In this document: piece by piece, positions 8,434 to 8,725 of the stretch
Numbering within the stretch: the first letter of the stretch is position 1
Layout: each line of letters begins with the position of its first letter
Source of the DNA: Candidatus Wolfebacteria bacterium RIFCSPLOWO2_01_FULL_47_17b
Lineage (GTDB): Bacteria; Patescibacteriota; Minisyncoccia; UBA6257; JAGOQP01
Direction of reading: 5' to 3'
DNA length: 64,000 nt
NCBI GenBank assembly: GCA_001793865.1
Contig: MGIS01000023.1
Coordinates: 60,137-124,136, forward strand
The notes under the pieces: generated by a model
Databases searched by the model: none
What the model saw: the letters and a program-made list of their open reading frames with translations, nothing else
Told to the model about the DNA's origin: nothing
Position numbers and translations under genes: made by a program

Positions 8434-8725
8434 TGCCGCGGGAGGGAATTGAACCCCCGACGCCATCCTCTTCCAAGGATAATTTGGACTATATCACTTC
8501 CGTCTCATTTTGAGATACGGAATCGGGCGCTTCGTCCCAATTTGCACTGGGACTACTCTCTTTCGAGATAGTCTCTACACCTTCCCCGACATAACGTCGG
8601 GGCTTGGCTCGGGATCGTCTTTTTTAAAAAAGGTTTCCCCCGAATTCACCCGATTTTTCAATCTACATTACTATAGAAAGCCCCAAAGAGTTTAGGGATG
8701 CGCTCTACCACTGAGCTACCGCGGC
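8434..8725 (-). tRNA. tRNA-Phe (GAA) split by a 220-nt intron; exons 8694-8725 (5') and 8434-8473 (3')
   Basis: Spliced product GCCGCGGTAGCTCAGTGGTAGAGCGCATCCCT|GAAGAGGATGGCGTCGGGGGTTCAATTCCCTCCCGCGGCA folds as canonical tRNA with perfect 7-bp acceptor; anticodon loop CTGAAGA. Confidence 0.7.
8474..8693 (-). ncRNA. Group I intron in anticodon loop (between nt 33 and 34) of tRNA-Phe
   Basis: 5' exon ends CCCU pairing with intron GGGG (P1, U:G at splice site); adjacent CUCUUU can pair 3' exon GAAGAG (P10); terminal G; P7-like GAGACUAUC...AGUAGUCC; P3-like AUCGGG/CCCGAU. Confidence 0.7.

Follow-up and report, generated by a model that had tools for sequence, protein, structure and literature searches.

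A predicted group I intron between U33 and G34 of a tRNA-Phe(GAA) gene in a Candidatus Wolfebacteria genome

Introduction

What is encoded on the minus strand at positions 8434-8725 of a 64,000-nt stretch of contig MGIS01000023.1 from Candidatus Wolfebacteria bacterium RIFCSPLOWO2_01_FULL_47_17b (the whole stretch analysed here, called the window), and how would its transcript mature? An earlier reading of the letters (the original prediction) had placed two halves of a tRNA-Phe here, separated by a small group I intron, and had judged an intron in this tRNA, at this position and of this size to be unusual. We find that the segment is very probably a tRNA-Phe(GAA) gene in which a 220-nt group I intron without an open reading frame (ORF) separates U33 from G34, and the same high confidence covers the joint statement that this intron belongs to a family already catalogued in Patescibacteria as Phe.2Ug or Phe(GAA) 33/34. 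We describe the evidence for the junction, the fold and the family, compare the intron with named systems, and consider a putative hairpin formed by intron and exon together at the 3' splice site.

Results

A tRNA search with intron detection, performed with ARAGORN in its intron mode, returned a tRNA-Phe(GAA) with a 220-nt intron, at a junction identical to that of the original prediction. The 5' exon (tRNA positions 1-33, 32 nt, 8694..8725, minus strand; GCCGCGGUAGCUCAGUGGUAGAGCGCAUCCCU when read from 8725 to 8694) contains the acceptor strand GCCGCGG, the D arm, the 5' strand of the anticodon stem (CAUCC), C32 and the terminal U33. The 3' exon (40 nt, 8434..8473, minus strand; GAAGAGGAUGGCGUCGGGGGUUCAAUUCCCUCCCGCGGCA when read from 8473 to 8434) begins with the GAA anticodon (8471-8473) and continues with G37, A38, the stem strand GGAUG, the variable loop, the T arm and the acceptor strand, ending in the discriminator A73 at 8434; CCA is not encoded. 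Joined in silico across the predicted ligation boundary ...GCAUCCCU|GAAGAGGAUG..., the exons fold into a cloverleaf of 72 nt, in which the acceptor stem is perfect over 7 bp and U33 lies in the 7-nt loop CUGAAGA, and the canonical tRNA proposed from the two halves stands with all of its coordinates exact. The size given by ARAGORN for the spliced tRNA, 73 bases (8433-8725), counts one base beyond A73. A default ARAGORN run on the window found ten other tRNAs and no tRNA-Phe, and no second tRNA-Phe was found within the 64 kb.

The position of the junction was examined by splicing 81 donor/acceptor pairs in silico, covering ±4 nt on each side. Only one of them, the junction of the original prediction, left a U at position -1 and a terminal guanosine on the intron (ωG) and at the same time kept U33 in a 7-nt loop with a normal anticodon; in the 80 others U(-1) or ωG was lost, or the loop or the anticodon (AAA, for example) was abnormal. 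The spliced product shares 96% identity with two uninterrupted tRNA-Phe genes from metagenome contigs (loci L212 and L214 of the metagenome scan described below), from which it differs only in two compensated anticodon-stem pairs. At the level of sequence, the predicted ligation product corresponds to real, uninterrupted genes.

The intervening 220 nt (8474..8693, minus strand) start with AAACUC, end with ωG at 8474 and contain no ORF. We scanned the whole window with Rfam at gathering thresholds (50 for Intron_gpI, RF00028) and obtained a single Intron_gpI match, at 8464-8703 on the minus strand (77.3 bits, E=6.7e-18), which extends over model positions 1-253 of 253 and bears out the group I identity. 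The core elements follow in the order P1-P2-P3-P4-P5-P6/6a-P7-P3'-P8-P7', with extra hairpins P7.1 and P7.2 between P7 and P3'. In P1 (8681..8697), exon CCCU together with intron AAA (8691-8697) pairs with the guide UUUGGGG (8681-8687) across the loop CUC, which sets a U33·G wobble at the 5' cleavage site. The hexanucleotide just before the G of this wobble, CUCUUU (8685..8690), is the P10 guide; its partner is GAAGAG of the 3' exon (8468-8473; 6 bp). Downstream lie the P2 hairpin CUAUA-GUAA-UGUAG with a GNRA-type loop (8663..8676), P3 (AUCGGGUG at 8647..8654, pairing with CGCCCGAU at 8522..8529), P4 (8609..8643; UCGGGG at 8638-8643 with UCCCGA at 8609-8614), which encloses the P5 hairpin (8619-8632), and P6/P6a (8579..8608), where GCC..GGU closes CCCCGAC-GUUAU-GUCGGGG.

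P7 is formed by GACUA (8569-8573) and UAGUC (8487-8491), both invariant in 51/51 relatives. Its 5' strand lies in the segment GUAGAGACUA (J6/7 and P7, 8569..8578), which is likewise invariant and fits the Rfam consensus AGACUA. The invariant GAUAUAGUCC (J8/7 and P7, 8486..8495), which fits the Rfam consensus GAUAUAGUC, supplies the real 3' strand. The P7 of the original prediction, GAGACUAUC with AGUAGUCC, was therefore mistaken: it joins the 5' strand of P7 to the P7.1 hairpin UCUC-GAAA-GAGA (8557..8568), and in relatives its second strand corresponds to the 3' strand of P7.1, a conserved GUA and the start of P7.2. The same GUA separates P7.1 from the P7.2 hairpin GUCCCA-GUGCAAAU-UGGGAC (8534..8553). 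The P1, P10 and P3 pairings proposed earlier were correct or, in the versions given above, are slightly longer. The P8 hairpin UCCG(UA)UCUC-AAAAU-GAGACGGA (8499..8521) is a further element of the core. A minimum free energy (MFE) fold of the 292-nt precursor, calculated with ViennaRNA and independent of any family model (-112.8 kcal/mol, z=-5.2), recovers three tRNA arms, P1, P2, P3, P4, P5, P6a, P7.1, P7.2, P8 and the composite hairpin at the 3' splice site that is discussed below.

We scanned contigs of one genome per species in GTDB with the pattern GTAGAGACTA-N45-75-GATATAGTCC-N6-24-GAARA and obtained at least 119 loci, of which at least 67 are tRNA-Phe(GAA) genes with an intron between U33 and G34. 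Two further loci, L057 and L079, were labelled Leu(CAA) by ARAGORN because their introns begin with CAA. Inspection of L057 (1872-2173, minus strand) revealed that it is in fact a tRNA-Phe(GAA) split at 33/34, a miscall of the same kind as the Asn and Asp junction miscalls described by Nakagawa et al. (mSystems, 2026; PMC13011429). The host titles among the matches listed are nearly all Patescibacteria, with a few bins labelled Gammaproteobacteria, and the lineages among them include Saccharibacteria, Paceibacterota/Parcubacteria, Doudna-, Yanofsky-, Harrison-, Giovannoni-, Vogel-, Jorgensen-, Lipton-, Kerfeld-, Magasanikii-, Moranii- and Gracilibacteria as well as Minisyncoccia. The closest genome relative among these matches is a Giovannonibacteria metagenome-assembled genome (MAG; L038), with 82% identity in the intron and 93% in the tRNA. 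The 69 tRNA-Phe introns are 195-295 nt long with a median of 219 nt, close to the window's 220 nt, so that the intron is not the unusually small one it had been taken for. No uninterrupted tRNA-Phe was present in the 119 matches listed, whose loci are 8 kb or less each, and a tBLASTn comparison of six window ORFs with the same matches gave weak or isolated hits only.

The window itself is an exact match to the ENA metagenome contig ERZ4903055 k141_3781923 (86.5 kb), and of four assembly loci compared, two have an identical tRNA-Phe region: L120 (ERZ4903055) and, as it appears, L121 (ERZ27254845). The core pattern also matched six contigs in which ARAGORN found no split tRNA (L012, L019, L072, L118, L013 and L030); they derive from Neobacillus, three Streptomyces, a Helicobacteraceae MAG and a Thermotogae MAG. 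Such matches may have arisen by chance or may mark group I introns located in other genes.

The 69 introns differ at their 3' ends. In 18 of them, mostly with A37, P7 is followed by an internal P9 with a 6-bp stem capped by GAAA, GUAA or GCAA, and then by an A-rich tail. The other 51, which include the introns of the window and of the published Doudnabacteria genome, lack an internal P9 and end only 8-16 nt beyond P7; with a single exception, these short-tail introns carry G37. The 51 non-identical short-tail members, with 9 nt of the 5' exon and 12 nt of the 3' exon, were aligned (alignment A1), and the helix model of the window intron, 69 pairs in all, was projected onto the alignment. Standard pairs occupied 87.5% of the cells against 73.0±0.4% in shuffled alignments, changes on both sides were seen in 44 pairs, and none of 500 shuffles attained any of the observed measures. 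Shifting the partner by one column lowered the pairing to 49%.

The individual helices contributed to this signal to different extents. The exon part of P1 was paired in 100% of cases, with U·G at the splice site in 51/51 relatives and covariation at position -4 (CG in 34, GC in 17). All five pairs covaried in both P2 (98.4% paired) and P5 (88.5%), as did all seven pairs of P6a (96.6%); P4 and P6 were paired in 99.3% and 95%, respectively, and P3 in 88%, with three compensatory pairs. P7 was paired in 100% but is invariant, and is hence uninformative for covariation. P8 shows covariation at the base of its stem; further out, the MAFFT alignment is poor. These compensatory changes in P1-P8, and those in P10, indicate purifying selection on the fold across the family.

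The splice junction was assessed in the same way across all 69 tRNA-Phe introns, in which P1 contains four to six exon pairs; a contiguous P10 of 4-8 bp can form in 68 of them. The guide nucleotide that faces position 37 is C in 53/53 genes with G37 and U in 15/16 genes with A37, and this covariation supports the junction and the P10 register independently. A junction with U(-1), ωG and GAA was possible in 69 of 70 tRNA-Phe calls made by ARAGORN, including the window and the published Doudnabacteria gene. The P1 with its U·G pair, the P10 and the ωG of the original prediction are thereby supported, and the Rfam match, ARAGORN, covariation and the near-identical uninterrupted genes agree on a tRNA-Phe(GAA) split at 33/34 by a group I intron.

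In the classification of Michel and Westhof, subgroup IA is marked by additional hairpins, P7.1 and P7.2, in the interval from P7 to P3', and the window has two hairpins in this place, at 8557-8568 and 8534-8553. Patescibacterial tRNA introns have been assigned to subgroup IA, and none to IC (Nakagawa et al., 2026). From the agreement of this architecture with the published assignment we infer that the window intron belongs to subgroup IA. P7.1 is not part of the Rfam model and is aligned to it as an insertion, the P7-P3' region holding an insertion of 37 nt. Two types of filling occur there in A1. In the first, found in the window and in 16-19 relatives, two hairpins of differing sequence are present; P7.1 is kept as UCCC/GGGA, UCCU/AGGA and other variants, and P7.2 has a counterpart in the same place. 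In the second, found in about 32 relatives, there is one hairpin with a conserved loop of 16-17 nt, GUGAGUCCCAACAAUAAU, and the near-invariance of this loop suggests a tertiary contact.

How novel is such an intron? The four classical classes of bacterial tRNA introns (Leu.3Ug, Arg.5Ug, fMet.2Ug and Ile2.5Ug) were extended to 21 by Williams (2020; bioRxiv 10.1101/2020.01.27.920355), in whose numbering '2' denotes insertion after the second loop nucleotide, i.e. 33/34, and whose seed sequences include Mba55.Phe.2Ug. We find P1 and the core of the latter to be plainly homologous to those of the window intron. An intron at Phe(GAA) 33/34 is also recorded for the complete Doudnabacteria genome GCA_016699995.1 (Nakagawa et al., 2026, Tables 1 and S3), in which all three tRNA finders gave one tRNA-Phe; according to the same study, interrupted and uninterrupted copies of one tRNA seldom share a genome, and 33/34 of tRNA-fMet is a well-characterised site. 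The view that an intron in tRNA-Phe at 33/34 would be unusual does not survive these records of host and position (Mba55.Phe.2Ug, GCA_016699995.1), nor does the argument from position, 33/34 being the classical site in tRNA-fMet. Host tRNA, position and phylum have all been recorded before, and the window intron is another member of a published class.

The published Phe.2Ug introns of Doudnabacteria GCA_016699995.1 and Mba55 resemble the window intron in host tRNA, anticodon, U33|G34 junction, U·G pair, ωG and G37-A38. They share with it the junction CCU|...G|GAAGAG, the core motifs AAAUCGGGUGAA, AUCCCGAGCCAAGCC, GGAAGGUGUAGAGACUA, AGCGCCCGA and GAUAUAGUCCAAA, and a short 3' tail that lacks P9 and is complementary to the stem strand of the 3' exon. 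The Doudnabacteria intron is 211 nt long and has a single P7-P3' hairpin with the conserved loop GUGAGCCCAACAAUAAU, whereas the window has both P7.1 and P7.2; its anticodon stem is GACGC/GCGUC, that of the window CAUCC/GGAUG, and the tail alters in step. The Patescibacterial Asn and Asp introns at 35/36, also of subgroup IA, share with the window intron the phylum, the P7-P3' hairpins (e.g. gagacuaUUCCuuaaUGGAAguag...), the lack of an ORF and a similar size (about 200-260 nt), but have a different site and an ordinary internal P9 with a GAAA loop.

The cyanobacterial tRNA-fMet(CAU) intron (fMet.2Ug) has the 33/34 site and the universal U33 in its U·G pair in common with the window intron, but it resides in another host tRNA, is classed as IC3 (Williams, 2020) and, judged from Patescibacterial Met 33/34 examples, has a normal internal P9, which the window intron lacks. 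The Azoarcus tRNA-Ile(CAU) intron (205 nt, IC3; PMC13168695), which serves as the structural model for introns in pre-tRNAs, is likewise compact, without an ORF and located in the anticodon loop, and it forms P1 from the 5' exon and a guide and has the same catalytic core P3-P8. Its site, Ile2.5Ug, lies after five loop nucleotides, which we read as 36/37, as opposed to 33/34 in the window; it contains a canonical P9 and P9.0 and no P7.1/P7.2, whereas the window intron has P7.1/P7.2 and no internal P9. Before the first step of splicing the Azoarcus 3' exon is unpaired, while that of the window can pair with the intron tail. The cryo-EM paper on Azoarcus (PMC13168695) contains no discussion of the anticodon stem, nor of P10 by name.

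The place of P9 in the window may be taken by a composite hairpin that spans the 3' splice site (8463..8482, minus strand). In this structure the intron tail UUAUCCUU pairs with GAGGAUGG of the exon over 8 bp, and the loop G|GAA consists of ωG and the anticodon; GGAA is a GNRA-type tetraloop, and the 3' splice site lies inside it. In addition to its recovery in the MFE fold, the hairpin is placed by the Rfam model on the model's own P9 with high posterior probability. Short-tail introns as a group show complementarity between the tail and the exon segment made up of G37 and the 3' anticodon-stem strand. In the MAFFT alignment this tail-exon helix was 76% paired and blurred by gaps, and we assessed it per sequence with permutation controls instead of by alignment columns. 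In a fixed register, four or more contiguous pairs were found in 31 of the 51 introns, with a mean of 4.65 compared to 3.34±0.16 (maximum 3.80) in 500 permutations of tails and exons; in a free register the mean was 5.25 compared to 3.92±0.14. The tail tracks the stem over at least eight stem types, among them CAGCU/GGCUG, GACGC/GCGUC, UCGC/GCGA, AUCC/GGAU and UAGGA/UCCUU.

These results raise the possibility that the P9 element of short-tail introns is not made of intron alone and combines the last ~8 nt of the intron with exon sequence, namely G37 and the 3' anticodon-stem strand, a proposal that we put forward tentatively and hold to be somewhat less likely than its negation. It is weakened by the kinship among the sequences, which inflates the tail/exon permutation tests, by the roughly one third of the subclass without a fixed-register helix, and by the unpaired 3' exon of the Azoarcus pre-tRNA (PMC13168695). 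We did not find the composite hairpin described in the surveys of Williams (2020) and Nakagawa et al. (2026), and it may be the one detail here that is undescribed.

A37, the site of N6-isopentenyladenosine (i6A) or its 2-methylthio derivative (ms2i6A), is typical of tRNA-Phe in model bacteria. The window has G37 (8470) in its CUGAAGA loop, which the original prediction had regarded as an archaeal or eukaryotic feature. A scan of metagenomes for the uninterrupted junction, with the pattern TAGCTCAGTGGTAGAGC-N5-CCTGAAGAG, returned at least 120 contigs (loci L124-L243), in each of which ARAGORN found a tRNA-Phe with the same CUGAAGA loop. Since G37 is present in 53 of the 69 interrupted genes as well as in these uninterrupted ones, A37 is not defining in this lineage, and the archaeal or eukaryotic interpretation falls. 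Judged from the genes, G37 is a trait of the bacterial lineage and is not created by the intron. Bacterial TrmD prefers G36-G37. We observed that tRNA-Phe with A36-G37 is common in the lineage, both with and without the intron; a literature search for 1-methylguanosine at position 37 (m1G37) in Mycoplasma tRNA-Phe brought no confirmation.

The interrupted gene lies in a tRNA cluster that is similar in related loci. Upstream, at a distance of 51 nt and in the same orientation, is tRNA-Pro(UGG); tRNA-Arg(UCU) and tRNA-His (6013-6086, minus strand) follow downstream. A promoter-like site, identified by consensus match only, ends 2 nt before tRNA-Phe. A 10-bp hairpin with a T-run (8406-8428, plus strand), set off by 5 nt (CAAAA) from the 3'-terminal tRNA-Phe base, 8434, looks like the terminator of the convergent gene for a STAS-domain protein (7958-8392, plus strand). 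A free-standing ORF of 167 amino acids with a LAGLIDADG_3 match (6097-6600, minus strand; 33.6 bits) ends 10 nt upstream of tRNA-His; it might act in trans as a maturase or be what remains of a homing endonuclease. A LAGLIDADG homologue with 50% identity is found in the Harrisonbacteria locus L057 (617-1060, minus strand), in the same tRNA cluster as the interrupted tRNA-Phe. In its intron mode ARAGORN also called a 'tRNA-Pyl(cta)' at 10929-11481 (minus strand), split by a 460-nt intron; this call overlaps tRNA-Ser(CGA), has no Rfam intron match and is probably spurious. At 25672-27228 (minus strand) lies a complete 16S rRNA gene of bacterial type (Rfam, 1395.6 bits). Because the Rfam scan found no 23S or 5S rRNA in the 64-kb window, the rRNA genes appear to be unlinked.

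Discussion

The structure predicted here lends itself to the standard group I mechanism. Pairing of the guide UUUGGGG with CCCU and AAA would form P1, set U33·G at the 5' splice site and open the lower part of the anticodon stem, after which an external guanosine bound in the P7 pocket would attack after U33. The guide CUCUUU would then pair with GAAGAG of the exon to form P10, ωG (8474) would enter the pocket, and the 3'-OH of U33 would attack after ωG, joining the exons to give a 72-nt tRNA whose anticodon loop is CUGAAGA. As P1 takes C30-U33 from the anticodon stem, the intron tail may hold the freed 3' strand and supply a P9-like module. In the second step the loop of the composite hairpin would have to open, so that ωG could pass into the P7 pocket and G34-G39 into P10. 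The results above establish membership by sequence and structure, the covariation, the junctions and the distribution; from there we infer that the precursor RNA would splice, and would do so without protein.

Some observations weigh against parts of this interpretation. The splicing assays that have been published concern the Asn and Asp introns at 35/36 and not Phe at 33/34. Without an internal P9, the intron may be less active on its own. With a view of 64 kb of the genome, a second, uninterrupted tRNA-Phe could lie elsewhere. As for subgroup IA, the core motifs GGUGUAGAGACUA and GAUAUAGUC also resemble the Rfam consensus, a consensus built without bacterial seed sequences (Williams, 2020).

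The intron could also be genuine and yet not splice autonomously, relying in vivo on a protein cofactor such as a LAGLIDADG maturase encoded at 6097-6600 (minus strand). Some LAGLIDADG proteins do serve as group I maturases; the intron has no internal P9, the tRNA cluster also contains a free-standing 167-residue LAGLIDADG_3 ORF just 10 nt upstream of tRNA-His, and its 50%-identical homologue occupies the same position in the Harrisonbacteria locus with an interrupted tRNA-Phe. We nevertheless regard this dependence as unlikely, as such a homologue was near only one of the 119 matches listed (loci of 8 kb or less), the core is intact and conserved, as is the GNRA loop of P2, and no protein is needed for in-vitro self-splicing of the related Asn and Asp introns (Nakagawa et al., 2026). 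Far less probable still is a decaying relic, that is, a tRNA pseudogene with an inactive intron in a genome whose working tRNA-Phe is located elsewhere. Inspection was limited to 64 kb of the genome, which leaves room for such a gene, but all core elements are intact, P1-P8 and P10 show compensatory changes across at least 67 species, and the exons make a perfect cloverleaf. In addition, no uninterrupted tRNA-Phe accompanied the 119 matches listed, the published complete genome GCA_016699995.1 has a single tRNA-Phe (PMC13011429), and the sequence is identical in independent metagenome assemblies.

It might also be argued that the tRNA has another identity or that its junction is shifted, with anticodon AAA and an intron lying 1-3 bases further 3', or with Leu or Ser as the amino acid. 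ARAGORN does give other identities at shifted junctions and miscalled two relatives as Leu(CAA), and junction errors of two bases are known for the Asn and Asp introns (Nakagawa et al., 2026). The shifts, however, lose U(-1) or ωG or yield loops of other than 7 nt, and the U·G pair of P1 falls exactly at U33 in 51/51 relatives. Together with a P10 register that begins at G34 and covaries, and with the 96% match of the spliced sequence to uninterrupted tRNA-Phe(GAA), this makes a different tRNA or junction the least credible of the explanations considered, and scarcely credible at all. A tRNA-Phe(GAA) gene with a group I intron between U33 and G34 is the interpretation we retain.

The discovery value of this particular intron is small, since the class was published in 2020 and 2026 and proves to have a wide distribution, with at least 67 species-level genomes among the matches. 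Default tRNA scans miss the gene, and genomes of the lineage can therefore wrongly seem to be without a tRNA-Phe. Two features may be of interest to RNA specialists: a possible modification of G37 after A36 in a bacterial tRNA-Phe, and a splice site placed inside the GNRA-type loop of a hairpin made by intron and exon. If the composite hairpin is functional, the intron borrows the anticodon arm of its host as a structural module. The hairpin could then replace the L9 tetraloop, or hold the 3' strand of the stem while P1 unwinds the 5' strand, and the borrowed anticodon arm could explain why this subclass is tied to tRNA-Phe.

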